From Eledone cirrhosa (taxonomy: Eukaryota), in contig OZ024741.1 of NCBI GenBank assembly GCA_964016885.1, positions 317,316,001 through 317,380,000 on the forward strand: a DNA stretch of 64,000 nucleotides, given 5' to 3'. Every line of letters begins with the position of its first letter. The stretch's first letter is position 1. Below the pieces are notes generated by a model. It did not search any database. It saw only the letters and a list, made by a program, of their open reading frames with translations, and was not told the origin of the DNA. A program made the translations under genes and the position numbers. This document shows, in pieces, positions 3,361-44,716 of the stretch.

Positions 3361-3854
<494 letters not shown>

Positions 3855-4350
3855 TTAGATATATTTCTTTATTAGCCACAGGGGCACAAAAGAAGGGGAC
3901 AAATACAAAGGGGGAAGTTTACATACAATAAAAACGTGTAAAATGTTATCACAGATGGAATTTAAAAGTTAGTCGATTTTCCCCAATAGAGGGAGACAGT
4001 TTATATGGGTAACACATACCCCCGAAAAAAATGTGCAACCCTCATCTCCAGGAGTACGAAGAGCTTGTACTCCTTTCCTCTCCTCCTCCTTTTCCTCAAC
4101 CTACAGGCTGATATAGAGAGAAGGCCCATTCACTCGGGCCATTCTCGCCACTTTCACCCACCTTTCATAAAACTTGCTGGGGTACAGCACCTCTCTCTCC
4201 ATCCTGATTCTTCTTCCAAAGTGCTTATTTGAAAAAAAGAATCAGTTGTTGGCCGGAGAGAAAGGTGTCTGACCTCAGCCCTTTCAACCTTGTCCACCAT
4301 ACAACCTCTTTCGCCATAGCTATCACACAAAGGAAAACCGCCTCTCCTTC
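3855..4350 (-). mobile_element. Tx1-clade 5'-truncated copy T2
   Basis: ORF2 C-terminus plus 3' UTR ending ggctaataaagaaatatatcta; 5' junction abuts the (GATA)3 of the next copy. Confidence 0.88.
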
Positions 4351-7300
4351 AGATAGATAGATAACTTTCTTTTTATTTGCCACCAGGGCATCAAAGAGTG
4401 GGACAAGTACAATGGGGGGAGTTTACATAAAAAAGCGTCCTCAATAAGGAGGAGGCAATAACAAGATATAAAAAATAATATATAAAATATAACAAAAATA
4501 AATTTAATAACAAAATCCTCAATAGGGAGGAGGCGCCTTGGGAGGTCACACACACCCCCGAAAAAAGTGTGCAACCCTTCTCCTCGGGAGCACAGAGAGG
4601 CGGTGCTCCCTTGATCTTTCATCTTCCACACCTATAGTCTGATGTAGAGTGAAGGCCCATTCACACGGGCCATTCTCGCCACTTTCACCCATCTTTCATA
4701 AATACGGCTGGGTGCAGCACCTCTCTCTCCATCCTGATCCTTCTTCCGAAATGATATCGGAAGAAACGGACCAGTTGTTGGCCAGAGAGAAAGGTGTCTG
4801 ACCTCAGTCCTTTCAGACGCGTCCACCATACAAACTCTTTCGCCATGGCTATTACACACAGAAACACCGCCTCTTCTTCGTTTTTGAAGAGGGGGGGCGG
4901 CTTGATCGTTACAATAGCCTCGATGGTCAACCGGATCGGTCCCACCCTTGACAGCAGTTGTTCCACATAGCCCCACAGATCGGCAATGCCCGAGCAGTGT
5001 ACCAATGCGTGTGCAACGGTTTCCTCGTCGGACACGCATCTGGGACAGATCTTTTTCGAGGGGTCCCTACCCGGTCGCCCGTGTCTGTAGAACCTTTCTC
5101 GAACGGGCAGAGCCCCTCGGTAGCACTGCCAGGCCAGGGGCCTCTGGAAGTTGTGCATGGGTCCCGGGCTGAATGTTCTACCGAACAGGTTGGGCAGTTC
5201 GTCTTAATGCGTGTTTACGTATCATTAGCCACGGCATCCCCAGCCCTCCTTTCGAAGGGGGTTGACAGCAGATGGATCTCCTCACCATAGGAGCCCGCTT
5301 CTTCCAAAGGAATTGGAAGAGTGCGCGCTCCATTTTGGCGAGCGTTTCTCTTGGGCAAGGCACGACGGTCATGCGGTAGTAGATGACGGACGCTATATAA
5401 GTGTTCGCCACCTCCGCCCGACCTTTCAGGGACAGTTTGCACTCGGCCCACTTCTGGGTCAGTGCAAACACCCTGTTCGTTACCTCACCCCAGTTCTTCT
5501 CCACCTGGAGGTCCGGTCCGAACCAGACCCCGAGCAACTTCACCGGGCCCTCCGTCCAGCGCCGGACGACGTCATCGGAGGGCATCGATCTGCCCCTCCA
5601 AAGGGGTGCCCTGCAACAACTCCAACTTCCGCAGTAGTGGCTCGAGAGTCAACACATACAGAAGGGAGGAGAGAGGGCACCCTTGTCGGATGGACCGCGC
5701 GATTTCGAACGGCTCCGAGAGGTAGCCGTTCACCTTGACCCTAGAGCAGATGCGGCTGCTGTGCATGGCATTGATCCAGCTCCTGAAAACGGGTCCGAAG
5801 CCTGCCGCCGCTGGCACCGCATCCAGGTAACCATGGTCGACCCTATCGAACGCTTTAGATTGATCCAAGTTGATCAGGGCCCCACCAAAGCCGGGTTCGT
5901 TCCCAACCCTCTCTATGATGTATCTCATGAGGTGGAGGTTGTCGTGAATGGACCTGGGCGGGATAGCATATGTCTGCGCATCTCCCACCAGGTTTCCCAT
6001 GACAAGCGCCAACCTCTTTGCTAGCACCTTGGCCAAAATCTGTAACTCTATATTTAGCAGAGTTATGGGCCTGAAATTATTTATATCGTCCCCCTTGTTC
6101 TCGTCCTTCCTCACTAGCGTGACTACGCCCTTGGTCACACCACAGGGAATTCTCCCGTTCTGTTGCCAGTTGCAGTAGACCGCCTCGAAGAGATCGGGGG
6201 ACAAGTCCGGCATAGCTAGATATAGTTCGTATGCAATACCATCGAGACCCGGGGATTTGCGTTTGCCGCATTGGCTCAGCACGTCCTCTATCTCAGCGGC
6301 TGAAATCGGCTCCTCGCAGGACTTCGCCTCCCTGTCCGAGAGACGCGGCAGGCCGTCGAGGTATGGACCGAAGTCCACTTCCCCAACCGGCTCCCCGCCC
6401 CTTCCGAACAATCTGGCAAGAAGCTTTTGAAAAGCCTCGCACATCTGCCTAGGTCCAAGGATCACCCGTCCATCCTGGTCTCGCAAAGACCGGATAGTGT
6501 ATCTACTCCCTCTTTTGGCTTCTCTCACGCGGGCCCAGCTAACAGTTTTGGTCCCCTCGTTTCCCAGAGCACCTATTTTGCTTCGGACGATGCAGCCTTC
6601 GTGTTTCGCGTCGAAGAACTGGCCCAGGGCCGTTCTCGACGCTAGCACTCTGGCCACGTCGCCGCTTCTAATTGCCTCTTCTACACTATCTACCAACTCC
6701 CTTTCCTTCCTATTTCTAATTGAGGCTAACTCCTTACTAAATTCTATAGAGACTACTCTAATCTCTCTTTTGAGAGATCCCCACCACCTGCTGTTGACGA
6801 TGGCGCCCGTCAACCGCTCCTTAACTAAAGTGCTAATCCTGTCCCTGTAAGCCTTACTTGCCGGTAAGGACAAGTTGAGCTTCCAGTAACCGGGTCCCTG
6901 TCTATGCGTTCTATTAAGGTTGACCATGCAGGTCACTAACTTATGGTCTGAATAGCCAACCATGAGCATTTTTGGACAACTTAAAAAGTCCCTATCCTAA
7001 CTAAGAACCTATCTAGGTACGATCTAGATTGACCGCTACGGTTTGCCCAAGTCCAGGTTGGCGCAGTCGGAAAATCTAGTCGATATCTATCGGCCAGGTC
7101 AAATCGACCGATTAACCCTTTGAGGCTGTTACACCCCTCTCTATCGGGACAGGCCCTACGTAGTCCCAACGTGCATCTAGGATACCATTCCAGTCCCCCA
7201 CTAATAGCAAGGAGCGGGACGTCCCCAGAAAAGTCTCCAGACGATGGAAGAAGTCCGGCTGAGTTGACTCGAAAGGGCCGTAGACGGCTACCAGCCTAAA

Positions 7301-8473
7301 CGCTCCGCCTTCACCACTGCCAAGGTCCAGAACCACTAGTCGACCCTTCGGGTCCAAATGTACTGTCTGTGTTGCGAGACCCAGATGTTTTTGCAGCAGA
7401 ACGACAACCCCACCCCCACCACCGAGCTGACAGAGAGATGCGTGCATCTCAAAGTCATCAAAGGTGGGGGCCAGCTGTCGCACGTTGCTGATCCGGGCCT
7501 CGCAAATAACCATCACATCTATACGTTGTGACCTGAGGTCATTTAGAAGCATTGCTTGCTTCCAAGTTGAACCCAGGCCACGCGCATTTAGACAGCCGAC
7601 TCTTAGCATAGCCATGTTGGTGGTGAAGAGAAAAGGTACTTACCTCTCTGCGTCCCGGGTATCGGGCTCTTCGTCTCCTGGGGACCAGGCTGCACAATTT
7701 CCATGGGGGTGTTGGAGTGGCTTTTTGGTGGGGTGGTGGTCTCTGGCGGGGTGGGGACGGAGATTTTTGGTGGGGAGGGGGCGTCAGGTGGGGTGGGGAC
7801 GTCTGGAGTGGGAGTGTCTGGGGTGGGGGTGGGCAAACATTTCAAAAGGACGCGGTTATAGGGTTTGACGCATGGGTTACCTTCGTCGTTAGGAAATTTT
7901 TCCTTTAACTGTTTATGTGTGTCCATGGAGATGCTAATCATTTTAAGATTAGGATTCTCTGCAGAGTGTGTAAAAGTTTTCACTTCGGTCTCCACCGAAG
8001 GGTTTTTATATATGGTGTCTGTTAAGGTTTTATTGTTAGTATTTATGTAGGTGTAACATTTTTGTTGTGTTGTGTTGCTTTTTTTCTGTGGTTCTTGTGT
8101 GTGTTTACGTTTTGTAGTAGGTGTTTTGTTTTCAGGAGGGAGTGTTTTTGTTTGTGCTGTTTGCGTTGCTTATATTGTGTTTGTGTGTTTGTTGCATTTT
8201 TGTTTATGTTATGTCTTTTCTTTTTTCTTTTTACTGGTCGGAAAGGCTCTCCCTCACCGTCACTGGGTGATGAGGCCTCATCCGTGTTGTTGGGGAGGGG
8301 TACATTTTGAGGAGCTGTTATGTGTGTGGGTGTTTCTGGAGTTGTTTTAGGTGGGGAGGGGTTGGATGGGACTGTGTTTGCAGTTTGGTTTGTTTTTGTG
8401 TGTTGTTGTTGTGGTGGTGGTGGTGGTGGTGGTTGTGTTGTTGTGTTGGGTGTCGGCAGTAGTGCCTTTTTTT
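4351..8473 (-). mobile_element. Tx1-clade copy T3, 5'-truncated within ORF1, inactivated
   Basis: APE endonuclease (LRVGCLNARGL, GDWN, YLDR, SDH), RT (QGCPLS), C-terminal CPRC..ETVAH..HC. Frameshifts near 7110 and 6975; internal deletions near 5600 (about 165 nt, removes YADD) and 5200. (GATA)n at both ends. Confidence 0.93.
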
Positions 8474-8591
8474 ATAGATAGATAGATAGATTGTGTTAAG
8501 TATTTCCGTAGAAAAGGTAAAGGAAAGAAGGGTGGTCTATGTATAGTACAGAGCTATTTAATTATGTGATAAACAACACAATATAATTATT

Positions 8592-8657
8592 CCATTACCC
8601 AAGGTTTCACGAAGTTAGACGATTCTAACAGAAACATCTAGTTCCTTCATCAGATGA
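8592..8657 (-). ncRNA. Hammerhead ribozyme motif (mirror copy)
   Basis: tcat-CTGATGA-aggaactagatg...cgtctaacttcgt-GAAA-ccttggg-TA-atgg; one mismatch near the base of stem II. Confidence 0.65.
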
Positions 8658-8658
8658 G

Positions 8659-8724
8659 TCATCTGATGAACGAATCAGACGTTTCTGTTAAAATCGTCTA
8701 ACTTCGTGAAACCTTGGGTAATGG
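8659..8724 (+). ncRNA. Type I hammerhead ribozyme motif
   Basis: tcat-CTGATGA-acgaa..agacg/cgtct..ttcgt-GAAA-CC(ttg)GG-TA-atgg; predicted cleavage after GUA at 8720. Confidence 0.78.
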
Positions 8725-8751
8725 AATAATTATATTGTGTTGTTTATTATG

Positions 8752-8844
<93 letters not shown>

Positions 8845-8845
8845 A

Positions 8846-9494
8846 GGTAGATAGGTAGATAGATAGATTTCTTTATTTGCCACAAGGGCGCACAAGAAAA
8901 GGGGACAATTCAAAGACATGCCGGAGATTTTACATACAGTCGTGTAAAAAATATAAAACAAACAATTAAAACAATCGAAATCCCCAATTGGGAGGAAGCG
9001 CCACAAATAGGGTGTTTAATACCCCGTCGATAGAACAACCCTCAACTTCAGGAGCGTGTTGTGTAAGTGCTCCTTTCTTCCTTTTGCTCTCTTCTTTAAC
9101 CTACAGGCTTATAAACAGAGAAGGCCCAATCACTCGGGCCATTTTTGCCACATTCACCCACCTTTCAGTAAATTTACTGGGGTGCAGTGCCTCCCTCACC
9201 ACTCTGATTCTTCTTCTAAAGTGATACTTAAAGAAGGGAATCAATTGTTGTCCGGAGAGAAAGGCATCTGTCCTCAGTCCTCTCAATATCGTCCACCATA
9301 TAACATCTTTCACCATAGCCACTGTACAGAGGAAAACCGCCTCTCTTTCGTTTTTTGAAAGAGGCTGGCGGTTTGATCCTTACTATGGACTCGGCAGTCA
9401 ACTGGATTTGTCCCATACGCGACAGCAGTTGTTCTGCATAGTTCCACAGGTCGGTTACGCTCGGGCAGTGTACAATTGCGTGCAGGACGGTTTC
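8846..9494 (-). mobile_element. Tx1-clade 5'-truncated copy T4
   Basis: ORF2 C-terminus (ORF 9101-9322) plus 3' UTR with AATAAA; GATA repeats on both sides. Confidence 0.9.

Positions 9495-9555
<61 letters not shown>
9495..9555. repeat. (GATA)n tract between T4 and T5
   Basis: Direct inspection. Confidence 0.97.
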
Positions 9556-9556
<1 letters not shown>

Positions 9557-9787
9557 ATTTCTATTTATTTGCCACGAGGGCACAAAAGAAGGGGACATTT
9601 ACACAGTGGGGGAGTTTACATAAATCGAGTAAAGAAAAAAGGAATAACAATAATAATATAACAATAAAAAGTCCTCAAAAGGGAGGGGGCGTGTTGGGGA
9701 TTGCACATACCCCCGAAAAGTGTGCAACTCTTTTCGCGGGGGAAGCCCAGAGAGGAGGCGCTCCCCCTTTCCTCTTCACTTCTTCAC

Positions 9788-12700
9788 CTACAGAACAATG
9801 TAGAGAGAAGGCCCATTTACACGGGCCATTCTCGCTTCTTTCACCCACCTTTCATAAAACTGTCTGGGACCAAGCACTTCTCTCTCCATCCTGATTCTTC
9901 TTCCGAAGTGGTATCGGAAGAAGTAAACCAGGTGATGGCCGGAGAGAAAGTCACCCGACCTCAGACCTTTCAGGCGCGTCCACCACACAACCTCTTTCAT
10001 CATGGCTATTACGCACAGAAAGACCGCCTCTGCTTCATTTCTGAAGGGAGGAGGCGGCTTGATGTTCACCACAGACTCGGCGGTTAATCGAATCGGCGCC
10101 ACACGCGACAGCAGTCGTTCGACGTAGCCCCACAGATCGGCAACGCCCGGGCAGTGTACCAGTGCATGCGCAACGGTTTCCTCGTCGCGCACGCATCTGG
10201 GACAGATCTTTTTCGCGGGATCCCTGCCCGGGCGCCCGTGTCTGTAGAGCTTTTCTCGAACGGGCAGAGCCCCCCGGTAACACTGCCAGGCTAGGGACCT
10301 CTGGAAGTTGTCCATGGGTCCCGGGCCGAAAGTTCTACCGAACAGGCTGGCCAGTTCGTCCTCCTCCATGCCTAGCGACTCTCCAAGGGTGTCGTCGCCC
10401 CTGCTAGCCACCAACCCTCTATAGAATGTCGAGGTGGATTCTCCACTGACAGTCGGGTCCGCTTGCCAGATAGCCGTGAGCGCCTGGGCACACTCAGTGT
10501 GCCAGTTGCCCAGTTTTCTCGGTCTTTGCTTCACCCAGGATTGCAGTTCGGTGAGCGAGACGAGCTGTGGGAAGGCTCGCCTCACAAACGGGGCCCACAC
10601 CGGCTGACCGTTGAGGAATACCTGTAGATGCCGTAGCCTCAATGCGTGCCTACGCATCAACAGCCACGGCATACCCAGCCCTCCTTTCGAAGGGTGCTGG
10701 CAGCAGATGGATCTCCTCACCATGGGAGGCCGCTTCTTCCAGAGGAACTGGAAGAGCATGCGTTCCATGATGGTGAGCTTTTCCTTGGGGCAAGGCACGA
10801 CGGTCAGGCGGTAGTAGATGACGGACGCTATGTAAGCGTTCGTCACCTCCGCCCGACCTTTCAGTGATAGTTTGCACTTGGCCCACTTCTGGGTCAGCGC
10901 AAACACCCTGCTCGTCACCTCGCCCCAATTCTTCTCCACCTGGAGGTCCGGTCCGAACCAGACCCCGAGCAGCTTCACCGGGCCCTCCGTCCACCGCCCG
11001 ACGACACCGTCTAACGGCATCGGTTTGCCCCTCCACGTTCCGAGTTGCAAACCGACTGACTTGTCCTGGTTCAGCTTAGCCCCCGTCAGCCTTTCGTATT
11101 CCTCCAGTAGGGTGGCGATCGCCCCGATTTCCGAGGCGTCCGCCACCATTACTGTTACGTCGTCGGCATAGGCCGAGACCGCTTTGTGCAATCCCGGTTC
11201 CAGGGGTATGCCCCGCAGCAACTCCAACTTCCGCAGCAGTGGCTCGAGAGTCAATACGTACAGAAGGGAGGAGAGGGGGCACCCCTGTCTGATGGATCGG
11301 GTGATTTGAAACGGCTCCGAGAGGTAGCCGTTTACTTTAATCCTAGAGTAGATGTTGCCACTGTGCATGGCAGAAATCCAGCCCCTGAAAACGGGTCCGA
11401 AGCCCGCCGCCGCTAGCACCGCATCCAGGTAACCATGGTCGACCCTATCGAACGCTTTAGATTGATCCAAGTTGATCAGGGCCCCACCAAAGCCGGGTTC
11501 GTAGCCAACCCTCTCTATGATGTATCGCATGAGGTGGAGGTTGTCGTGAATGGACCTGGACGGGATAGCGCATGTCTGCGCGTCTCCCACCAAACCACCC
11601 ACCACAAGCGCCAACCTCTTCGCCAACACCTTGGCCAAAATCTGTAACTCTGCATTCAGCAGAGTTATGGGCCTAAAGTTACTTAAGTCGTCCCCCTTGC
11701 TCTCGTCCTTCCTCACTAGCGTGACCACGCCCTTGGTCACAGAACAGGGAATTCTCCCGTTCTGTTGCCAGTTGCAATAGACAGCCTCGAGGAGTTCGGA
11801 GAACAAGACCGGCATAGCTAAATAAAGTTCGTATGGTAGACCATCGAGACCCGGGGATTTGCGTCTGCTGCATTGGCTGAGCGCTTCCCCGATTTCAGTG
11901 GCTGTGATTGGCCCTTCGCAGCACTCCGCTTCGCCGCTCGAAAGACGCGGTAGACCGTCGAGGTATGGACCGAAGTCCACATCCCCGTCCGGCCCCCCGC
12001 CACCTCCGAACAGTCGAGCAAAGTGCCTTTGAAAGGTCTCGCACATTCGCTCAGGTTCAAGGATCACCCGTCCATCCTGGTCTCGCAAAGACCGAATGGT
12101 GGATTTAATCCCACTCTTGGCTTCTGTCACGCGGGCCCAGCTAACAGCTTTGGTCCCCTCGTTTCCTAAAGCACGTATTTTACTTCGGACAACGCAGCCT
12201 TCGTGCTTCGCGTCAAAGAACTGGCTCAATGCCGTTCTCGTCGCTAACACTCTGGCTACGTCTCCGCTCCTAATCGCCTCTTCTAGTTTATCTGTTAACT
12301 CCCTTTCCCTCCTATTTCTATTCGCCGCTAGTTCCTTACTGTAACCTATCGAACTTACTCTAATCTCTCTCTTTAGAGATATCCACCACCTACTGTTGAC
12401 GATCGCTCCCGTCAACCGCATCTTAACTAAGCTACTAATCCGGTTTCTGTAATCTTTCTTTGTCGGTAAGGACAAGTTCATCTTCCAGTAACCGGGACCC
12501 TGTCTATGCGTTCTATCAAGGTTGACCACGCAGGTCACTAATTTGTGATCTGAATAGCCAACCATGATCAGTTCTGGACAACTAAATACGTCCCTATCCT
12601 TACTCCTAACCAAAAACCTATCTAGGTACGATCTAGATTGTCCACTGCGGTTTGCCCAGGTCCAGGTTGGCGCAGTTGGACAATCTAGTCGAAATCTATC

Positions 12701-13216
12701 GACCAGGTCGAATCGATCGAGTAACCCCTTGAGGCTGCTACACCCCCCTCTATCGGGACATGCCCCTGCATAGTCCCAACGCGCATCTAGGATTCCATTC
12801 CAGTCCCCCACTAAAAGCAGGGAACGCGACGTTCCTAGAAAAGTCTCCAGACGTTGGAAGAAGTCGGCTCTCTCCGCCCCGAAGGGAGCATAAAGACCGA
12901 TCAGTCTGAAAGCCCCGCCTTCACCACCTCCGACGTCCAGCACCAGTAATCGACCCCCCGGGTCCGAGTGAACAATCTGTACGTCGAGAGTCAGACGTTT
13001 ATCCAGCAGTACGGCAACTCCCCCCCCGCCTCCGGGTTGACAGAGAGATGCGTGCATCTCAAAGTCATCGAAGGCGGGCGCCAGCTGTCTCACGCTGCTG
13101 ATCCGACTCTCGCAAACAACCATCACATCTATACTTTGTGACCTGAGGTCACTTAGAAGCTTTGCTTGCTTCCAAGCTGAGCTCAGGCCACGCGCGTTCA
13201 AACAGCCAACTCTCAA
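9788..13216 (-). CDS. ORF2: APE endonuclease, reverse transcriptase, C-terminal CCHC
   Basis: 1142 aa uninterrupted. Motifs: LNARGL, E, Y-P, GDWN, YLDR, SDH; KSPGLDG, FRPITLLN, LDQSKAFD, QGCPLS, YADD; CPRC..H..HC. No AUG at the expected start. Confidence 0.93.
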   Translation of the reverse strand: MRVGCLNARGLSSAWKQAKLLSDLRSQSIDVMVVCESRISSVRQLAPAFDDFEMHASLCQPGGGGGVAVLLDKRLTLDVQIVHSDPGGRLLVLDVGGGEGGAFRLIGLYAPFGAERADFFQRLETFLGTSRSLLLVGDWNGILDARWDYAGACPDRGGCSSLKGLLDRFDLVDRFRLDCPTAPTWTWANRSGQSRSYLDRFLVRSKDRDVFSCPELIMVGYSDHKLVTCVVNLDRTHRQGPGYWKMNLSLPTKKDYRNRISSLVKMRLTGAIVNSRWWISLKREIRVSSIGYSKELAANRNRRERELTDKLEEAIRSGDVARVLATRTALSQFFDAKHEGCVVRSKIRALGNEGTKAVSWARVTEAKSGIKSTIRSLRDQDGRVILEPERMCETFQRHFARLFGGGGGPDGDVDFGPYLDGLPRLSSGEAECCEGPITATEIGEALSQCSRRKSPGLDGLPYELYLAMPVLFSELLEAVYCNWQQNGRIPCSVTKGVVTLVRKDESKGDDLSNFRPITLLNAELQILAKVLAKRLALVVGGLVGDAQTCAIPSRSIHDNLHLMRYIIERVGYEPGFGGALINLDQSKAFDRVDHGYLDAVLAAAGFGPVFRGWISAMHSGNIYSRIKVNGYLSEPFQITRSIRQGCPLSSLLYVLTLEPLLRKLELLRGIPLEPGLHKAVSAYADDVTVMVADASEIGAIATLLEEYERLTGAKLNQDKSVGLQLGTWRGKPMPLDGVVGRWTEGPVKLLGVWFGPDLQVEKNWGEVTSRVFALTQKWAKCKLSLKGRAEVTNAYIASVIYYRLTVVPCPKEKLTIMERMLFQFLWKKRPPMVRRSICCQHPSKGGLGMPWLLMRRHALRLRHLQVFLNGQPVWAPFVRRAFPQLVSLTELQSWVKQRPRKLGNWHTECAQALTAIWQADPTVSGESTSTFYRGLVASRGDDTLGESLGMEEDELASLFGRTFGPGPMDNFQRSLAWQCYRGALPVREKLYRHGRPGRDPAKKICPRCVRDEETVAHALVHCPGVADLWGYVERLLSRVAPIRLTAESVVNIKPPPPFRNEAEAVFLCVIAMMKEVVWWTRLKGLRSGDFLSGHHLVYFFRYHFGRRIRMEREVLGPRQFYERWVKEARMARVNGPSLYIVL

Positions 13217-13221
13217 TTGAT

Positions 13222-15084
13222 CTATTTTGGTGTTGAAAGTGAAGAAAGAAAAGCACTTACCTCTCCGGGTTGCGTAATTTCCATGGCATCAGGTGTGTTG
13301 GGTGGAGGGATGTTTTGTGGTGGTGTGGGGGTACACGTGTGTGGTGGGGTTGGGGTATTTGGAGTTGTGTCAGGGAGAGGGGCGGTTATGGGGAAATCTT
13401 TCAAGAGGACGCGATTCAACGGTTTTAAACAGGGGGGGCTCACGTCCCGTCTAAATTGTTCTTTTAAGGAACGATAAAGGTCCAGAGGGACCTTTATCAT
13501 TTTTAAATGGGTGAAGTTCTCTGTTGAGATAAAGTTTGGCCCTTCGGTCTGCACCATAGGGTTATTGTTTATTAATTTAACCAGTTTTTTGTTTTCTTTA
13601 TTTATATATGTGTATTGCAACGTCTTTTTTTGTGATGCTGTCAATGTTTCGGAGAGGGGAGGCGCAGATTTATTTTTGTTTGTTGAGGGTGGGGTGTTTT
13701 TGATTGGAGTTGGTGTTTGTGTGTGGGTTATTTGTGGTGTGCTGGGTGTGTGTTTTCTTTTTTTTCTTTTAACTTGTCTGAAGGCTTCTCCTCCTTCTTC
13801 TTCAGAAGTTGGGGGAAACTCTTCAGCGCTAGGTGGGAGGGACGTGTTGTGTGGTTGTTTTTTTTTTGCGGGAGGGGTAGATTTGTTACTGTTTTTTTTA
13901 TTATTTGTTTGGAATGGGTTTTGTGGTGGTGGTGGTGGTAATGTTTGTGTCGTGCTTGTGGTTGGTAATGGTGGTGGTGATGTTTGTGTTGTGGTTGGTG
14001 GTGGTGATTTTTGTGTCGTGCTTGTGTTTGGTGCTGGTGGTGGTGATGTTTGTGTTGTGTTTGTGGTTGGTGGTGTCTGTATTTTGTTTGCTGTGTGTGG
14101 TATTAGTGTATTTTTGGAGGTGGGTGGTGCTGGTGTACTGTTTGTGGTGGGTGTGGGCAATAGTCCTTTTTGGGGGATACGTTTCGGGCAGTTAGCCTTA
14201 ACGTGTCCCCTTTCCATGCATAAATAGCATGCTGGTCTTCTCCCCTCTACAATTATGTCTATTGGGGTAAGGTCATCCAGCCAGATGCGATCCGGGATTT
14301 GTGCTATTCTTTCGGGCCTCATTTGGACTAGTATGTCGAGGCCCATTCCCAGGAACGCATCTCCAGTTGCCTTCCCCATTGACAGCATAGTGTCTTCGCC
14401 CATATCAATGAAGCCAGCAATAGCCCACCAGAAGTCCATTGTGGGCAGCATTGTTTTTACTTTTACCCTCTGTGTTCTTCTACCCATGTAGGAGGGATAG
14501 AAGCTATATGTTGTCGACGAGAGTGGGCTTAGGGAAAGCTGAACCGCCGTTTCTTTGTCTCTTGTTAGGACCGAAATGCTGCCATAGAGTCGGTCCTTTC
14601 GTATGAAGAGAATATTCTTCATATAGTCTTTTAGGACTAACTCTATTTCCATTTGGCTGGGCTGTGCTGGCTTTCTTGACTGGTTTAGTATAGTTCTGTA
14701 TATAACTGTGTTTTCTGCTCTGGCTTTCTTGAATTCTGGGGGGGAGTTAATGGAAAACATTCCGTTTTCCCCCAAAACAATATGTTTCTTTGCTTCGGCC
14801 AGTTTTTCTCTGGCGGCAGTTAGGTCAATTGGTGTGTATGTAATGGATTGCTTTGTTTTCTGGGCGAAAGTTGCCCTGTCGTTATTTGTATTATTTTCTG
14901 TTTGTTTGTTTTCTGTTTGCTCATTTTCCTTAACATTTGTTTTTTCATTTTGTTTGTTTGTTTCAATGTCTAATTTTGTTGTAATTATTTTTTGTTCTTC
15001 AGACTTGGGGGGCGTGGCAGAGCTAATGGCAGACATGTCTGCCATCTTTTCCGCCATGCTGCCAAGAAAGAAATTTTTCGGCAA
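13222..15084 (-). CDS. ORF1: gag-like nucleic-acid-binding protein with zinc knuckle
   Basis: 620 aa; CX2CX4HX4C (CYLCMERGHVKANC); Pro/Thr-rich tail; KRKKRK. Likely ATG at 15057. Confidence 0.88.
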   Translation of the reverse strand: MPKNFFLGSMAEKMADMSAISSATPPKSEEQKIITTKLDIETNKQNEKTNVKENEQTENKQTENNTNNDRATFAQKTKQSITYTPIDLTAAREKLAEAKKHIVLGENGMFSINSPPEFKKARAENTVIYRTILNQSRKPAQPSQMEIELVLKDYMKNILFIRKDRLYGSISVLTRDKETAVQLSLSPLSSTTYSFYPSYMGRRTQRVKVKTMLPTMDFWWAIAGFIDMGEDTMLSMGKATGDAFLGMGLDILVQMRPERIAQIPDRIWLDDLTPIDIIVEGRRPACYLCMERGHVKANCPKRIPQKGLLPTPTTNSTPAPPTSKNTLIPHTANKIQTPPTTNTTQTSPPPAPNTSTTQKSPPPTTTQTSPPPLPTTSTTQTLPPPPPQNPFQTNNKKNSNKSTPPAKKKQPHNTSLPPSAEEFPPTSEEEGGEAFRQVKRKKRKHTPSTPQITHTQTPTPIKNTPPSTNKNKSAPPLSETLTASQKKTLQYTYINKENKKLVKLINNNPMVQTEGPNFISTENFTHLKMIKVPLDLYRSLKEQFRRDVSPPCLKPLNRVLLKDFPITAPLPDTTPNTPTPPHTCTPTPPQNIPPPNTPDAMEITQPGEVSAFLSSLSTPK

Positions 15085-15258
15085 AAATAGATATTTATTT
15101 TACCCCCTAAAAAGGGGGTAAATGCAAAAATGTTTCCCTAAATAACAGGGGTTAGTGTTCCAAATGTGTTGCACTAAAAAATTTATCCGGTACTTACAAT
15201 AGTAAGGGTAAATCCCGATGGAATAGCGGAGCCGATGCGAAGCGTGTCTTACTCTATC

Positions 15259-15292
<34 letters not shown>

Positions 15293-15660
15293 TCTTTCTT
15301 TATTTGCCACAGGGGCATGAAAAAATGGGACATTACAAGACGTGACGGCGGGGGTTTGACATAAAATCTTTAACAATGATAAATAACAATAAACTATATA
15401 AAAATAAAACAATTGACATCCCCGCTACTGCGGGGTTGTTTTACACCCCGTGGATAGAACAACCCTCAACACCAGGAACACGTTTTGTAGGTGTTCCCGT
15501 CTTCCCTCTGTTTATCTTCCTCGACCTACAGGTTTATATACAGAGAAGGCCCATTCACCCGGGCCATTTTCGCCACATTCACCCAACTTTCAGCGAATTT
15601 ACTGGGGTGTAGCATCTCTCTCTACACTCTCACCTTCCTTATGAAGTGGTACTTAAAGAA
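15293..15660 (-). mobile_element. Tx1-clade 5'-truncated copy T6
   Basis: ORF2 end plus 3' UTR; (GATA)n at 15260-15292 and 15661-15672. Confidence 0.9.
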
Positions 15661-16183
15661 GATAGATAGATACGAGGGGTTTTCGCAGTTTCCTTCCGTC
15701 TACCAATTCCACTCACTTGACAATTGATCAGCCTGATACGGTAATAACTGTAGGTAATCAGATCAAGACTCCGTACTGTGGGGGTTAAACCCAGAACTAC
15801 ATGTTAGCTAGACGAACTCTCTCACCACTCAGCCATGCCAACGCTTTAGTCATACTTTTATACTTATTACTTTTAAGCATATTATTATCTTTGCTTTTTG
15901 TTATTATTCATCTTAATTAGTTGTTTATTTCCTTTTAGTTTATATGATTTTTTAAAGTTCTTTATTGATTGAATGGTTTTTATCGTTATTTTCTCTGTGA
16001 TGCAAAGCTTCATTTGCATCATGTTTTCTACATAAAACAGCGGAACAATGGTCATTAAACAATTTAAGTATTTTTCTCACTCTCTATTTTTATTTATTTC
16101 TCTGTGTATGTATGTATGTATGTGTGTGTGTGTGTGTGTGTGTGTGCGTATATATTTATACATATATGTGTGCATATAAGAGC

Positions 16184-31932: not shown

Positions 31933-33256
31933 TGACACTGAAGAAGGATACAAGTATTTGGGTGTTCTGGAGGCTGATGACATCAAGAACAAAAAAAATG
32001 AAGGAATTGATAAGATCTGAATACATTCGGAGAGTAAGGAGGGTATTAAAGTCACATCTGAACAGTAGGAATGCCATAAGTGCAGTAAATTCCCGAGCTG
32101 TGTCTATTATTAGGTACAGTGCGGGAATTCTGAGATAGAATGTTGCTGAACAAAAAGAAATGGATAGGAAGACTAGGAAGCTATTGACTATCTACAACAT
32201 GTTCCACAAGAGGAGTGATGTCGATAGACTCTACTTAAGGAGATCTGAAGGTGGAAGAGGTCTTATCAGCATAGAGGACTGTGTTCAGATGGAGAAAAAC
32301 AACCTACACAAATACGTGACTGATAGTAAGGAGCCAATGTTCAGAACTGTACTGAAGGAGAGGACAATAGACCAGGAGATATCCAAGGAGGAAATAACAA
32401 CAAGGAGAAAGAGCAGCCTTCATGAAAAATCCCTTCATAGTACCTTCTTTGAGAAAACTGAATTCAGAGATCCACAGACATGGAACTGGTTGAAAAGAGG
32501 AGACCTTAAAAAGGTTACAGAAGGAATGCTAATGGCTGTGCAAGCGCAGGCCCTCAAAACGAAGTGGTTGAAACACCATATTTACAAGGAGGAGGCTAGC
32601 CCACTGTGCAGGATCTGTGGAGAGAGAGAGGAGACTGTGGCTCACATTGTATCCGAGTGTAAACACCTAGCCCAGACTCACTATAAGGGCTGGAGACATG
32701 ATGTGATGGGCAGGGTGATCCACTGGCACCTATGCAAAGTAAACAATTTACCACATTCTGAGAAGTGGTATGAGCATAAGCCAGAGGCGGTGATAGAAAA
32801 CGATCAGGTGAAGGTGCTGTGGGATTTTAGGATACAGACGGACAAGAAACTGGAACACAATAGACCTGACCAGGTGGTTTTGGACAAAGAAAAAAGATCG
32901 TGCCTGATTGTAGATGTGGCCTGCCCATTCGACACGAGAGTGCAAGAGAAGGAGAGGGAGAAAATTAACCGATACCAGGACTTAAAGTGGGAGGTAAAAA
33001 GGATTTGGAACTGCCATGAAGTCAAAGTGGTCCCGATTGTCATAGGCGCACTAGGTACTATCTCAAAAAGTTTCCAGGGATGGTTAAAGAAAATTGGCTC
33101 CTTCACGCTTTTTGGAACGCTTCAAAAGGCATGCTTGCTGGGAACAGCAAGAACCCTCCGATACGTCCTGAATATCTGAGGCTGCAGGTAGTGGCTTGAT
33201 ATTCATTTCAACAAACTTTCCAGTTAACTAACATCACTGACTGAGACTCAAAGAGT
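31930..33256 (+). mobile_element. R4/Dong-like RLE non-LTR element, family A, 5'-truncated
   Basis: YKYLG, GGRGL, CRICG..ETVAHIVSEC, RHD, RPD..D..P..K..Y (ORF 32160-33179); (TAA)n on both sides. Confidence 0.9.
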
Positions 33257-33289
33257 AATAACAATAATATAATAATAATAATAATAATA

Positions 33290-34760
33290 AAAACTTACAA
33301 ATATCTAGGTGTTTGTGAAGGAGACGAAATCAAGCACTCGACAATGAGGGAAAGGATAAGGAAGGAATGTTACCACAGAGTGAGAGCAATCTTAAGAACG
33401 GAATTGAATGCAAGGAATAGGATCGATGCCATAAACACGCTTGCCATACCAGTAGTAACCTACAGTTACAATGTCATCAACTGGTCAAGCACAGAGATCC
33501 GTAGGCTCGATGAAAAAATTCGAAAATTCTTAACCATGCACAGAATGCATCACCCTAAAGCAGATATAGATAGAATATATCTCCCTAGGAAAGAAGGAGG
33601 ACGTGGGTTAATCCAGTTAGACATTGCGTTGAAAACTGCAACAATTGGATTATCTACATATCTAAGGGAATCACATGATTGGATGATCAAACTCGTTTTG
33701 AAACACGAAAGCATCAAAAGATCATATTCCATTACAAAAGATGCACAAAGATACAGTAATGGACTACAAATTTCAGAAGTCCCATTTACTGCTGAAATGG
33801 AAAACACAGAAAAAGCAAAGCAGGTAAAAGAAAGAACTGCTACAGAAACTGGCTAAGAAATGGCAAGAAAAGCCTCTGTATGGAAAATACCGAGAGCGAG
33901 CTAACAATCCTGATATTGACAAAACTTTAACCCATCAGTGGTTGGCATCCTCTGGACTGAAATCGGAGACTGAAGGACTGATTATATCGGCACAAGATCA
34001 GTGTCTGCCAACAAAAAATTACCAAGCCGACATAATAAAAAATGGGTGCAGCCCATTATGCCGTGTATGCAAGAAACTACCAGAGACCATTTAATTTCAA
34101 TGTGCAGTCCTATAGCTCCAACCGAATACCTAAACAGGCATGACAGAGCTGCACAATACATACATTGGATAATGTGTAAGCATTTTGACCTTCCCCATCA
34201 AAAGAATTGGTGGGAGCATCAACCACCTCCCATACTTGAAAAAGATCACATCTCAATCTTGTGGAACTTTAGCATCCAAACAGACCGAAAAATAGATGCA
34301 AATAGACCTGATATAATATTGAAGGACTTCAAAAAGAGGGTATGCCTGCTAATTGATATGTCTGTTCCAATAGACAAGAATGTATCTATAAAAACATTTG
34401 AAAAATTGATCAAGTATAAGGACCTGGAGATAGAAATTGGAAAAATGTGGAAATTGAGAACTAAAACAATACCAGTGGTTGTAGGCGCTCTGGGAATGAT
34501 ACCTAAGGGGTCTAATGATTACTTATCGCAAATCCCAGGAAACCCGCGAATAGGAGAAATACAAAAGATAGTACTAATGGGAACTGCCCATATACTAAGG
34601 AAGATTCTGTCAATATAAGTACATCACAAGTCTAAACACTAAAGATGCATGTGTGAGTATGTAAGCTCTTTCTTGAACATGGCGGACCTTGTCTCTTGAG
34701 GTCACTGGTTGTGACTTGGTGATAACTCGTATGAACATAAAGCAAGATAAATGCAACTGT
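33290..34760 (+). mobile_element. R4/Dong-like element, family B, 5'-truncated
   Basis: Near-identical to 46748-48240, with two small frameshifting deletions; (TAA)n on both sides. Confidence 0.9.
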
Positions 34761-35187
34761 AATAATAATAATAATAATAACAGATGGTGGATAGAAGGTC
34801 GAGAAATCGCTCCCGTAAGTTTTGATTTTTTAACATATTTAAATCAATTGTGAAATAACAATTCTTAGTACAAATGTTGCATAAAACATCCAGCTTGAGT
34901 TCCAAAAAAATTCGGATCCACAATATATTGTTATATCGCTCAAATATTCAATTTTGTATTATACATTTTATATTCAAAAAGAAAATGGTTATAAATGAAA
35001 GAAAACCCCTCTGTCTACACTATATAGAACAGCCAAATAACAGCAATTTCACCAACATCAGAAACTAGATACACCACCTACCCCATCACCCTTCTGTGTA
35101 CACTAAACACAACAGCCCGATAACGGCAATTTCACCACCACCACCACCACTCTCAGCATAATAATAATAATTACTATTACTATTGCC

Positions 35188-36445
35188 TCAAGTTTTAGTT
35201 TTAACAAAATGTTTAATTCCAATATTATGGGTAAATGTCAACACATATACGCAACTAACGATAATTTCACTAAAGATAATTTCACCACCAATACCACCAC
35301 CACTACCACGATGAAAACTCTGGTCAAGTCGACTCAAATGTCTACTCCAACTTCAACACCATCACTACAGTAATACGACCACATCACCACCACCGCTGCC
35401 TCACTATCGCTACCGCCGCTATTCTCTCCCACTACCTCCTGCTAGTTGCTGCTAGCACAGCACCGCCACCGCCGCCGCTGCCTCAATATAACTACCGCCG
35501 CTATTCTCTCCCGCTTCCCCTGCTACATTGTAGAATTCCCACTAAAAGAGGAAAACATCAAAATATATAAATAGACTGAATTGATGACCTGGTCAAAATA
35601 AAAAAAATAAAAATAAAAAAATAAAAATCAAGTTTTAGTTTTAACAAAATGTTTAATTCCAATATTATGGGTAAATGTCAACACATATGCGCGACTAACG
35701 ATAATTTCACTAAAGATAATTTCACCACCAATACCACTACCACTACCACGATGAAAACTCTGGTCAAGTCGACTCAAATTTCTACTCCAACTTCAACACC
35801 ATCACTACAGTAATACGACCACATCACCACCACCGCTGCCTCACTATCGCCACCGCCGCCGCTGCCTCAATATCACTACCGCCGCTATTCTCTCCCGCTA
35901 CCCCCTGCTACATTGTAGAATTCTCACTAAAAGAGGAAAACATCGAAATATATAAATAGACTGAATTGATGACCCGGTCAAAAAAAAAAAAAACAATAAT
36001 CAAAATCAAGTTTTAGTTTTAACAAAGTGTTTAATTCCAATAATATGGGTAAATGTCAACGCATATACGCGACTAACGATAATTTCACTAAAGATAATTT
36101 CACCACCAATACCACCACCACTACCACGATGAAAACTCTGGTCAAGTCGACTCAAATTTCTACTCCAACTTCAACACCATCACTACAGTAATACGACCAC
36201 ATCACCACCACCGCTGCCTCACTATCGCTACCACCGCTATTCTCTCCCACTACCTCCTGCTAGTTGCTGCTAGCACAGCACCGCCACCACCACCGCCGCC
36301 GCTGCCTCAATATCACTACCGCCGCTATTCCCTCCCGCTATCCTCTGCTACATTGTAGAATTCCCACTAAAAGAGGAAAACATCAAAATATATAAATAGA
36401 CTGAATTGATGACCCGGTCAAAATTTAAAAAAAAAAAAAAAAATC
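35188..36445. repeat. Three tandem units of ~380-440 bp, each ending in an A-run
   Basis: tcaagttttagttttaacaaa at ~35188, 35628 and 36007; each unit ends gaattgatgacc(t/c)ggtcaaaa(A)n. Confidence 0.9.
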
Positions 36446-36629
36446 AAAGCAGCACAGCAACAACGAAAAACGTAAAGGAAATAAAAATGAAGAGAAAAAC
36501 AAACGGACGGACAGAGAAGGGAAGAGAAAAACTAAGTCAGACATTCAAACACTACATTACAATGAAACTTATGCTTATTTATTTTAGGGGGTTTTTCTGC
36601 CTGTTTGTTTGTTTGTTTGTGTGGGTTCG

Positions 36630-39258
36630 TCTACAGCGTGATAATGCCACACAAAAGTCACGTGGAGTGACGAAACCACCGGAGACAAGTAATTCACCGG
36701 TGGTTATGTAACCATACATTCGCCAATCCTCGATAAGAGTGTTTAAATGTCGAACCTAAACAGTTCGAATAACGGTGAAATGGAGACTAGAACGTCATGT
36801 GACAGACTCTCACCCAACAGGTACTCCCTGGCTCAGCAGCAGGGACCTGGCTGTCAACCAAATACTGCTGGTGTCGGAGGAAGAAGAAGAAGGAAAGGGA
36901 CCAGAACCAACTGGACGAAATAATTGAATAGAACTGTTATACAATGTTACCTGAAAAGTAACCCCAAGGAGAGGGGCTATAGGAGACGGATGCATAACAT
37001 CTGGAACGAGATTGGTCTATTTAAATTAGATGAACAAAAATTGGCCGGGCAGGCTCGGGTAATAAGAACTAATGGGTGGATAAGCGAGCTGGAACTGGAG
37101 GAACTGAGCAGAGAGATTAGCTTGGAGATGGAGGGTGGAGTGTGCCAGGCAAACGAGCCAGTGGGAAATGAAGGTGAAGAGGTCGAGAGAACGGAGGAAC
37201 CACCCGAAGCAGACAATGATCTGAATACTGAGATAAATAATACCTGGAACAGAGATACGGCCACTGAGGAGATGAATGCTGACGGGCTAGGACAAGATTT
37301 GGTTGACATCCTAAATTTAGTGGTAGATGAATTGAACAATGATAGTGGGAGACCTATGAACCTAAGATTTGTAGACAGGAAAAAGTTAAAAGAAACAACA
37401 GCTAAGGTAAACAAAGTCATCCCATACCTTGAGGCGAGGAGCTTTCACCAGCGCAACAATATCCTCAAAGCAACAGTAAATACGGTGAGGAAACTACTTG
37501 GTATAAAAGCGAGAGGAAACAACAGACAAGAAAGAGCAGAGCCTTGGTGGAAGAAACGACTGAGTGGTCAAATCAGGGAAATGAGAAATGACATTGGAAA
37601 GCTTGAGTCACTACTGAATGGGACACTAAAAAACATAGACACTAAAAATAGACTGGAAATAAAGTACAAAACTAGGAGGAAAAAGCTAAATATTATCATA
37701 TAGGAACTGAAGCAACGCATTGTATCAAAGAGTGCAAAAATCAGGCGATACAAGAACAGAGTCAGTCAGTATAAACAGAACTGCATGTTCGACAACAACC
37801 AGAAGATGCTGTTTAGACAGCTTGAGGGGAAAGAAAGAGTCAACGACTTGATCCCTGAGGCGGAACAAACTAAAACATTCTGGAGAGGAATATGGGAGAA
37901 GGATGTTAGACATAATGACCAGGCAGTGTGGATTGAGACAGTACAGAAGGAGATCAGTGAACAGCCACACCAACAAACTGATTTGAGTATCACAGTTGAA
38001 ACTCTTAAGGGGCAGGCCAAAAAACTAACCAACTGGAAATCACCAAGCCCAGATGGTGTGCAGGGGTATTGGATTAAAAATATAACATCCCTCCACCCGA
38101 AACTGACAACCATGTTCAATGACTGCTTGATGTCAGGTGAGGTACCAGAGTGGTTGACAAAAGGTACCACAGTTCTGATAATGAAAGACCGAATCAAGGG
38201 TAATGATGTTACCAACTATAGACCTATCACATGTCTGTCCGTAATGTGGAAACTGTTGACGAGCATTGTGTCTGAGGAAATCTACCATCACCTCCACACA
38301 AACAACTTGTTACCGGACGAACAGAAAGGATGCCGAAAGAAGTCACGTGGTACAAAGGACCAGTTACTTATTGATAAGATGGTAATGGGGAATTGCAGGA
38401 GGAGACACACTGATCTTGCCATAGGATGGATAGACTACAGAAAGGCATTTGACATGGTGCCTCATTCTTGGATCACCAAAAGCCTGGAGATCTTCAAGGT
38501 GGCAGATAACATCAGACAGTTGTTGGGCAAAAGTATGAGGTCCTGGGAAACAGAGTTGACATCAACGGGAGAATCCTTGGGAAGCGTGAAGATCAAGAGA
38601 GGTATCTTCCAGGGAGATAGCCTGTCCCCTCTGCTGTTTGTCCTTGCCCTGATGCCCCTGACCAGTGTACTGCGAAAAGTGAGAGCAGGATACAGGTTGG
38701 GAAAGGGAGGGCTTACCATCAATCACCTCCTCTTCATGGACGATCTTAAGCTCTTCGGGAAGAGTGAGAAGGAGTTGGATGTACTTGTTGACACTGTCCG
38801 TATTTTCAGCAGTGGTATATGTATGCAGTTTGGTATTAGTAAGTGTGGAGTCATTGTGATGAGGAGGGGTAGGTTGAGCAGAAGTAACGGAATCCAGATA
38901 CCAACAGGTGAGATGATAAAGGAAATTGACTCTGAGGAAGGATACAAGTATTTGGGCGTTCTGGAGGTTGATGGCATAAAGAACAAAAAAATGAAGGAAT
39001 TGTTAAGAACTGAATACTTTCGGAGAGTAAGGAGCGTATTGAAGTCACATCTGAACAGCAGAAATGCCATAAGTGCAGTAAATTCCCGAGCTGTGTCTAT
39101 TATTAGGTACAGTGCGGGAATTCTGAGATGGAATGTTGCTGAACAAAAAGAAATGGATAGGAGGACTAGGAAGCTATTGACTATCTACAACATGTTCCAC
39201 AAGAGGAGTGATGTCGATAGACTCTACTTAAGGAGATCTGAGGGTGGAAGATGTCTTA
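36630..39258 (+). mobile_element. R4/Dong-like element, family A, 5' portion, 3'-truncated
   Basis: ORFs 36924-37703 and 37785-39258 in one frame split by one TAG; NYRPITCL, EQKG, DYRKAFD, GIFQGDSLSP, FMDD, YKYLG. Confidence 0.9.
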
Positions 39259-42373: not shown

Positions 42374-44716
42374 GTTTAAAATAGAGTGGAAAAGATGGGA
42401 AAGACCACTTACCGTACTTTTGGTAGAGGAGGGATGGTTTTTACATCCCTTTTCACTTGATCGTCTGGTGAAGGGACCGTTGAATCGTCCCTTCGGCTGG
42501 TCGTCGGCTCTTCTAAGAGAATGTCTGAGTATACTCTTCGATTGATGGTTCCTCCTAGGTCCCTGAAATCACCAACTGCGTTGGGGAATTTCGTTTTAAT
42601 ATTTGTGTATTGTTTCTGTGCTATTTTTAGCAGTCTTATGTTAGTTGGCGTTTTGATTGGTGCTGGTATTATGTAGTCCTGTTGTGAAATGTCTGTGTGT
42701 TCAATTATGTAAGTCATTAGTTTCTTGTTGTGTGTATTTATTGCCGTGCATTTGTTTTTCTGGGGGTGGGGTGTGGTTCTGCTATTTTCTTGTCGTTGTT
42801 GCTGGGTGTGTGTGTTTTGTTGTTGTGTTTGCGATGTTGGTGCTTGTGGTGGTGGTGTTGAAGGTGTTGTTGGCGGTGGGGTTGTCGCCGGTGGTGATAG
42901 TGGCGCTAGTGTGGGTGGTGATGGTGTTGGTGTTGTTGCTGCTGTGGGTCTCTTTGCAGTAGACTTTACCCTTTTCTCATTTCTTTCCTCCCTTTTCAAA
43001 GGCGACGATGCGCTGCTTCTGCGTTTGTGCCTTCTTGCGACCTTTTGCCATCTCTCTCCCACCTCACACTCCATGTCTGATTCTGTAAGGTCGGGGAGGG
43101 GTACCAGCTCCACTCTTTCACTTGTTGTTGTTGGTGATGTTTGCACTGGAGTCTCTGTTGCAGCTGCATTTGGTATTGCTGTTGTTGTTGTTAATATTTC
43201 CACTGCTGCTGCTGTCTTTGATTTCCGTGGAGTGGGTATGGGTGCCACGGACCTATCGTTCCTGGTTGCCGCTTGTCCTGTTGCTGGTAGCCGTGGAGCC
43301 GGATTCGGAAGGAGGGGGGTTTTCTCCTTTCTCAGGGTCTTCTCGTTGCAGAAGGCCCTGAGGTGAGTCTTCGATCCACAGCGAAAGCATTTCGGGCGTT
43401 TGCCCTCAACACTTATGGGCAGTTGAGTGCCGTTATCGAAGTCTATCACATCCGGGATAGCTTCGATGCACTCCTGGTTGGTTTGGATTAGCATCTCAAT
43501 GGAGGAGCCGACCCAATCTTCTCTTACTTTTTTCTGTACTTGCAGTACAGTTGTTTTGTCCTCGATTCCGACGAGGACAGACGCGGCCAGCCAAGAAGGG
43601 GTCATTCCGGGGGGGACGTGGGTCAGTTTGACCCTCACAATTTTTTGCCCGCAGTAGGAGGGCACCAACACCATTTCCTCGCTCCTTAGGGTCACTACTG
43701 ATTGGGCCTTTGCCTCCTGGGGTGTGGCAAAAAGTACGTCTACGGTGGCGTATTTTTTTGCCTCGGGTGATGTGCGTTTTCCTCTGCCACACAGACCCCA
43801 AGGCTTTTTGTATTTGGGCCTCTGTGGCTCTTTCCACCCTACGGGATTTTGTACTTACTGTACGGTACGTGACCGTACAGTGCTCTTGGGTTTCGAAAAA
43901 ATTTTTCGCTGCCTTGCAGATTGCTCGGTGTCCGTTCTTTGTCACCATCTTCTTCGCTTCCTCTAATTCCTCATTTGTTATGAGGATTGTTTCCAAGTTT
44001 TTCGCAATACCTGCAAATGAGATTGGTTTTTCTCTGCTGTTGTTGTTGTCGTCAGAGCTGCTGGTACTTTTGTTGCTGCAGGTACTACGACTACTGCCTC
44101 CGCCGCTGTTGCTGTGGTTGTTGTTGGTGTTGCTGCTGCTAATGCTGTTGTTGTTTATGCTGCTGGTGATGCTGTTGCGGCTGCTACTGTTGTTTTCATT
44201 GTCACTGTTGCTGTTGTTATTACGGCTGCTACTGCCATTATTCCTGACGTCAGACGAATGAACTGGGTTTTCGTATTTCCCGCACAGCTGTTTCGTCGCT
44301 GTCGTCGTCGTCGTGGAGAAACCTTGCACGCTTTGCACGAGACTTTTCTTTTCTTTCGTCGCTTGCGAAAGAGAAGGGAGGGAGAGAGACACATTTAAAG
44401 AAGGGAGGGAGAGAGACAATCTTCTCTCTGCTGTAGTGATGATTGAGGAAGAAGAAGACGGAATGAGTGGGAGTGACGTATGAAATTTCTTTTTGGTAGC
44501 CATGTTTTTTTGTTTAAAATGAAATTTTGGGTACAAAACCCCAATAACTGGTTATTTAACCCCGAAGGGCCAAATAACGGACAGAAAGACCCCTCTCACG
44601 AGGAGGAGGGTGTCTTTATCAACAATTTGGTTCAAGTTTTAAACAATTTACAATTGTTTTAACGGTTAAAAATTACTATACCTTACAGAGCCGAGCCTCC
44701 GTCAACCATGGCATTC

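Follow-up and report, generated by a model that had tools for sequence, protein, structure and literature searches.

Results

A young LINE subfamily in the window

The stretch of the Eledone cirrhosa genome analyzed here (contig OZ024741.1 of assembly GCA_964016885.1, positions 317,316,001 to 317,380,000, a total of 64,000 nucleotides [nt]; hereafter, the window, whose coordinates are used throughout) contains a complete copy of a long interspersed element (LINE), termed T5, that runs on the minus strand from 15260 to about 9495, with a (TATC)n run just before its start and a (TATC)n tail. A sequence resembling a splice donor lies at the end of its first open reading frame (ORF1), and one resembling a splice acceptor lies at the end of its second (ORF2), from which a first-pass annotation had proposed that ORF2 might be removed as an intron (Table 1).

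In Tx1-clade LINEs, ORF1 encodes an RNA recognition motif (RRM)-like domain and a CCHC knuckle. The translation of T5 ORF1 contains a CX2CX4HX4C knuckle, and its neighbors in the ESM Atlas are zf-CCHC/RRM proteins at 0.90 to 0.92 (a lead only); no Pfam match was found in the part of ORF1 scanned, and a protein database search returned two distant relatives, the same search with ORF1 of subfamily A2 (see below) returning none. ORF2 matches the Pfam families Exo_endo_phos, RVT_1, and zf-RVT (the last below its cutoff) and, weakly, L1 ORF2p structures; an ORF2 of about 65% identity is present in related species (P0003). Judged by these sequence features, T5 is a Tx1/L1-type LINE; its domains fit the Tx1 label, which originates with the first-pass annotation and not with a reverse transcriptase (RT) phylogeny, the relatives in our RT tree (built with FastTree) being unnamed and none of them a named Tx1 reference.

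The subfamily to which T5 belongs is very young, since all 40 of the 40 best genome matches to 500 nt of its ORF1 are 100% identical and its 21-nt exon end has 379 exact matches in the genome. A degenerate pattern for the ORF2 N terminus occurs at 8,742 places in the 3.0-Gb assembly; a pattern for other L1/Tx1 families returned two matches across the genome.

A conserved splice-donor-like site at the end of ORF1

Sorting 118 ORF2 starts by the spacer that precedes them, we recognized ten subfamilies (A1, A2, and B to I), each represented by one natural copy (loci overlap), with T5 falling into subfamily F. All ten representatives carry a donor-like sequence (a slash marks the putative exon-intron boundary): ACG/GTAAGT in A1, AAG/GTAAGT in A2 and B, CAG/GTAATT in C, AAG/GTAGGT in E, GAG/GTGAGT in I, and GAG/GTAAGT in D, F, G, and H. 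These sequences match the U2-type 5' splice-site consensus at 7 to 8 of 9 positions; positions -1, +1, +2, and +6 are invariant, positions -2 and +3 to +5 are kept in 9 of the 10 representatives, the four variants GTAAGT, GTAGGT, GTGAGT, and GTAATT all lie inside the splice consensus, and ORF1 phases 0, 1, and 2 are all used. When rows are anchored on the motif, whose location is fixed at 36 to 61 nt ahead of a conserved ORF2 Leu codon, there is not a single invariant column over the 37 positions upstream or the 20 positions downstream, and the spacer and the ORF1 tail beside the donor are unalignable between clades. Within ORF2, 25% of 145 fourfold sites are invariant among nine representatives, and about 53% of fourfold sites are shared by the A/B and D-to-I clades.

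Matches of at least 7/9 to the consensus are rare elsewhere in the elements (26 of 51,005 positions, or about 0.015 per 30 nt), and the donor is the best or tied best among 216 to 237 GT sites in eight of nine representatives and second in E; in T5, it has the top score among the 222 GT sites of the scored stretch. To place the site among distant relatives, 20 of 80 metagenome loci were examined, and such a donor is missing from all 13 L1/Tx1-like elements whose ORF2 start is credible. Because none of these 13 scores above 6/9, the donor is, by this sequence comparison, specific to the present clade. One distant relative, L178, scores 7/9 but at a doubtful ORF2 start.

The three minus-strand occurrences of G/GTAAGT that had been noted in the window (7638 to 7643, 13255 to 13260, and 42407 to 42412) are all present, at 22, 29, and 33 nt from the ORF2 starts, and the accompanying claim that the motif is conserved as nucleotide sequence gains from its presence in 10 of 10 subfamilies, its variation within the consensus only, and its absence from the 13 distant relatives. 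The three donors also occupy ORF1 phases 1, 0, and 2 as described, but the phase 1 of the copy at 7638 stems from a short insert otherwise seen in L063, its parent subfamily D being phase 2, and the phase 2 motif includes the ORF1 stop. Taken together, the sequence comparisons indicate that the donor is probably a functional U1 site.

The donor core is predicted to be paired in 10 of 10 subfamilies. We rejected a conserved donor-masking hairpin, as shuffled spacers fold equally well in nine of the ten (B excepted) and the T5 donor region overall folds no better than shuffles (z of 1.36). In the subfamily B copy L096, the entire donor lies in a predicted 9-bp stem formed with a downstream complement, and none of 500 spacer shuffles folds as well. 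A 39-nt mini-intron in F, running from the donor as far as TAG, the ORF1 stop, was likewise discarded, being very short and leading into a stop. A second GTAAGT lies in the 5' untranslated region (UTR) of T5 (15192 to 15197, minus strand), and some other subfamilies have similar 5' sites.

Candidate acceptors at the end of ORF2

The ORF2 stop is followed by GT, in the form TAG/GT, at 78 of 94 ORF2 ends and in 12 of 18 3'-end clusters (loci overlap), with all four bases seen at +3, and this context is confined mainly to the clade with (TATC)n tails (subfamilies D to I; A and C have (ATT)n tails). All six ends in the window to which the motif had been assigned (3627, 4101, 4632, 9101, 9788, and 15526) carry it. 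The broader claim that the acceptor is conserved holds for the (TATC)n clade but not for A, the commonest subfamily (4,604 exon-end matches) and that of the copy at 42.4 kb, which ends in TAA; loss of the donor or use of other stops had been named as evidence against the proposal, and while the second occurs in A, the donor is never lost in the ten subfamilies.

By an untrained heuristic score (one not trained on the host), the AG of the stop codon comes out on top among the 263 AGs of F and the 253 of E. Subfamilies A and C (L091, L098, and L129) have a long pyrimidine tract plus CAG in the 3' UTR, about 80 nt before AATAAA, a site that ranks first in A and is absent from the (TATC)n clade. 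A candidate acceptor of some kind follows ORF2 in all ten subfamilies, though it differs among them, and a poly(A) signal lies about 200 to 260 nt past the ORF2 stop. Pyrimidines occupy 20 of 27 fourfold sites in the last ORF2 codons of the representatives, which are related to one another, versus a background of 49%. Inspection by eye revealed no clear branch-point consensus.

Possible excision of ORF2

The reading that we favor, tentatively and at somewhat short of an even chance, is that U1 binds the donor and that a share of the transcripts is spliced, with an acceptor located at the ORF2 stop or shortly past it, to yield an ORF1-only mRNA. The U1 small nuclear ribonucleoprotein (snRNP) would bind the conserved site at the end of ORF1, and in a fraction of transcripts this donor would be joined to an acceptor at the end of ORF2 (the stop-codon TAG in B to I, and the nearby AAG or the 3' UTR CAG in A), removing ORF2 from a message whose 3' exon would carry the poly(A) signal. 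Unspliced RNA would still serve as the message for ORF2 and as the retrotransposition template, and the purpose of the spliced form might be to provide additional ORF1p; splicing would be held partial by the pyrimidine spacer, for which pairing with the donor is predicted. The T5 intron would span 3473 nt, as computed here, matching the earlier estimate of 3.47 kb.

With the donor placed where ORF1 stops, a stop codon would remain at or near the junction, which, under the 50-nt rule for nonsense-mediated decay, could spare the spliced message from that pathway. The joined message is predicted to stop at the junction in D and E, leaving ORF1p unchanged, and to add three residues in F; a conserved peptide encoded by the 3' exon was considered and rejected. 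Extending the argument to the group as a whole is more tentative still: these elements may form a LINE clade in which the whole of ORF2 is a retained intron, with a self-masked donor at the ORF1 stop acting as a host-controllable switch between structural and transposition RNAs.

Search for spliced genomic copies

Genomic copies in which ORF1 is fused to the 3' UTR had been suggested as a trace of such splicing. Requiring an exact exon-end match, we searched for exon ends followed by anything but an intact donor in subfamilies A, D, E, F, G, and H (B, C, and I being left out), with the searches in F and in D/G/H covering only junctions whose next exon begins with GT. No spliced retrocopy was present among the approximately 6,770 exon-end matches of these six subfamilies. 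In F, there were no variant junctions versus 379 exon-end matches; in D/E/G/H, 10 variant matches stood beside 1,777 intact ones, and all 10 continue into ORF2; and 21 further variant matches in E likewise continue into ORF2, with no spliced copy among them. Among the 4,604 matches of A, 38 variants consisted of 35 that continue into ORF2, 2 inversions, and 1 short fragment, and 9 others are small deletions, one of them a deletion into ORF2.

Individual candidates were also dismissed: L253 has a match of about 26 nt to the donor flank, followed by foreign sequence and with no ORF1 upstream; L286 is a deletion into ORF2; and L245 and L257, both of subfamily A, are inversions beginning just past the donor.

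Weighing excision against other explanations

Several of these results, and others that concern the two sites, weigh against ORF2 excision. The absence of spliced copies is only moderate evidence, because an RNA without ORF2 needs to be mobilized in trans; but a spliced RNA would retain the whole 3' end, and the Tx1 machinery is reported, in the accessible part of the source, to mobilize short interspersed elements in trans (PMC4494074). The acceptor has exceptions (TAA at 10 ends in A, TAG/TT in B, TAG/GA in C, and three ends that are broken or misframed), the stop-codon AG ranks only 7 to 36 in B, D, G, H, and I, and the AAG/GT that lies 7 nt beyond the stop in A ranks only 38 to 44. Within D to I, 45% of fourfold sites are invariant, such that three invariant free acceptor positions have a probability of about 0.09 (0.45 cubed) under neutral descent, and acceptor invariance in the (TATC)n clade is therefore weak evidence. 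An unnamed relative retains the ORF2 C terminus (RxNG..L..L-stop) at the protein level, which accounts for part of the pyrimidine content. Predicted extensions of ORF1p vary from none up to 34 to 78 residues in G, H, I, and A, and LINEs already gain an excess of ORF1p through reinitiation (as described in part of PMC5972666). On the donor side, G plus the ORF1 stop supplies GTAA, GTAG, or GTGA in at least 7 of the 10 subfamilies.

The donor could be a real U1 snRNP site that takes no part in this splice and serves instead to keep the RNA from being cleaved and polyadenylated too early, whether in A-rich ORF1 or farther downstream, or to aid transcription and export of the full-length RNA. In HIV-1, a donor blocks an upstream poly(A) site. 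A universal donor with a variable acceptor, and the lack of spliced copies among the matches searched, fit this explanation; the final 1 kb ahead of the donor is 37 to 41% A, 12 of the 15 copies scanned have an AATAAA or ATTAAA no more than 500 nt upstream of the donor, and the U1 site of the Arabidopsis element EVD is reported to block premature termination (PMC5580714, in part). However, B and I copies lack AATAAA near the donor, intact ORF2s contain none, and acceptors rank at the top in E, in F, and in the 3' UTR of A, leading us to consider a U1 site without this splice unlikely, if worth serious attention.

A rather unlikely explanation, in our estimation, is that both motifs are by-products, the donor arising from an Arg-stop context (AGG followed by TAA, TAG, or TGA) together with a termination-reinitiation spacer kept by descent, and TAG/GT arising from a Leu-stop end next to a purine-rich 3' UTR. 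Phase 2 donors (A1, A2, D, E, G, H, and I) hold the ORF1 stop, as TAA, TAG, or TGA, within the motif, which is what such an origin would give; the subfamilies share a single common ancestor, and over the clearly free positions alone the rough probability of retention by descent is 0.02 to 0.06 (at 0.25 per site), which is not overwhelming. The absence of spliced copies fits as well. By contrast, the motif is present in F (phase 0) and in B (phase 1) though no in-frame stop lies inside it, and the noncoding positions +5 and +6 are kept while the neighboring spacer and ORF1 tail cannot be aligned between clades.

Finally, it is quite improbable that the donor splices to acceptors elsewhere, within ORF2 or in host sequence downstream, to give ORF1 fusions or truncated messages: several subfamilies do have high-scoring pyrimidine-rich AGs at about 630 and 3020 nt ahead of the ORF2 stop, and several internal sites are used in human L1 (excerpts of PMC2896524 and PMC5860796), but these AGs lie in coding sequence and may follow from protein constraint, and no DNA copy so joined was found among the variant matches read.

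ORF2 excision is plausible as an inference from sequence. A literature search whose coverage did not reach most subscription journals, Repbase Reports, or supplements found no account of ORF2 being spliced out in Tx1 or any other LINE, and the string "splic" is absent from the accessible portion of a paper on Octopus vulgaris repeats (PMC13282606).

Comparison with known systems

LINEs are thought to set the ratio of ORF1p to ORF2p by translation of a single bicistronic RNA, and Drosophila copia produces a subgenomic Gag mRNA by splicing. If excision takes place, a LINE would be able to use the copia solution, with a donor kept through about 45% divergence at fourfold sites, and thousands of young copies would become open to host control through splicing; should the splice not occur, conservation of a U1 site in a LINE would still point to selection on RNA processing.

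As presented in the accessible sections of PMC5580714, the Arabidopsis Ty1/copia element EVD resembles the present case in that a conserved U2-type donor closes the structural gene and is predicted to give an mRNA for the structural protein only (Gag in EVD) beside the full-length RNA, and in plant Ty1/copia elements the donor is conserved more than the acceptor. EVD differs in being a long terminal repeat element with a single gag-pol frame, from which only the protease region is removed, and with early termination, whereas the LINE is bicistronic, would lose the full 3.5 kb of ORF2, and would keep its own 3' end; moreover, splicing is demonstrated in EVD and is a prediction here. The SpORF2 and SpIRE forms of human L1 show that splice sites in an L1-group LINE can alter which ORF is expressed, but there splicing takes out the 5' UTR or ORF1 and ORF2 remains, and about 2% of full-length human copies are spliced insertions (PMC2896524 and PMC5860796, in part); in the LINE described here, the donor is at the end of ORF1, and no spliced insertion was found. 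HAL1 elements have ORF1 and a 3' end without ORF2, the structure expected of a retrotransposed spliced RNA, but are genomic nonautonomous families (excerpts of PMC5753468), and none with the precise donor junction was found here.

An AUG-less ORF2 in subfamily F

The start codon of T5 ORF2 is ATA, not ATG, and overlaps the ORF1 stop (13222 to 13225, minus strand). No AUG occurs in the 62 nt past the donor in 70 of 70 F copies (L001 to L030 and L292 to L331), and the first in-frame Met of F ORF2 is residue 35, beyond the GxLNARG motif. Variants found in at least three segments, some of which come from the same locus, comprise 26 synonymous and 18 nonsynonymous changes and no stops, the expected synonymous share being 29%; singletons comprise 82 synonymous changes, 122 nonsynonymous changes, and 10 stops. 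Because the shared variants lean toward synonymous changes and lack stops, the AUG-less frame appears to be under selection, and it is likely expressed via reinitiation at AUA or a -1 slip at the stop. An ORF2 of this kind would offer a natural example of an active LINE expressing a frame without an AUG. In SART1 and mammalian L1, which use termination-reinitiation, the stop of ORF1 and the start of ORF2 are similarly close or overlapping, and start choice during reinitiation is relaxed in caliciviruses (both as given in part of PMC5972666); subfamily F differs in having no AUG, an ATA that overlaps the stop, and an ORF2 frame that is open for 21 codons upstream of that ATA.

Within the ORF2 endonuclease region (about 13021 to 13031 in the window, minus strand), a G-run varies from 11 to 19 nt among the otherwise identical copies L001 to L030, the frame being open across the 1.5 kb examined in 16 of the 30. 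This variation could reflect slippage during copying or sequencing error.

Nested copies and neighboring elements

Table 1. Features of T5 and related copies in the window (a slash marks a putative splice boundary)
Feature	Position	Strand	Element or basis
Donor-like GAG/GTAAGT, ORF1 phase 0; intron would begin at 13260	13255..13263	-	T5
Pyrimidine-rich spacer, 72% pyrimidine (69 to 81% in other subfamilies), predicted to pair with donor	13226..13254	-	
Acceptor-like site, pyrimidine tract then TAG/GT; TAG at 9788 to 9790 doubles as ORF2 stop	9786..9812	-	T5
Full-length LINE copy T5, subfamily F	9495..15260	-	Genome matches, exon-end matches
ORF1, 611 amino acids: RRM-like region, CCHC knuckle, Thr/Pro-rich tail	13222..15057	-	Translation
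ORF2, 1145 amino acids: APE endonuclease, RT, zf-RVT; starts at ATA overlapping ORF1 stop	9788..13225	-	Pfam
3' UTR, about 230 nt, putative terminal exon with GA-rich start and U-rich tract; AATAAA at 9564 to 9569	9556..9787	-	
Donor of D-type copy, phase 1 through short insert	7638..7643	-	
Donor of subfamily A1 copy that lacks its 3' end; TAA within the motif serves as ORF1 stop	42407..42412	-	
Three nested ORF2 ends with TAG/GT (3627, 4101, 4632)	3627..4634	-	
ORF2 stop TAG/GT of 5'-truncated copy	9101..9103	-	
ORF2 stop TAG/GT of 5'-truncated copy	15526..15528	-	

Copies end in (TATC)n or (ATT)n repeats, which may be tails or preexisting targets, and are nested in each other's tails; head-to-tail nests formed by insertions at the simple-repeat tails of other copies occupy positions 3500 to 15700 of the window and recur at many other loci. 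The microsatellite-targeting Tx1 elements Kibi, at (TC)n, and Koshi, at (TTC)n, are likewise APE-RT LINEs in simple repeats (PMC4494074, in part), but the repeats that form tails and flanks in the present elements are (TATC)n or (ATT)n. Elsewhere in the window, several RT-encoding ORFs on the plus strand (32139 to 39293 and 44827 to 48093) belong to another LINE type, RTE-like by eye, and the A1 copy abuts these RTE-like ORFs at about 39.2 kb.

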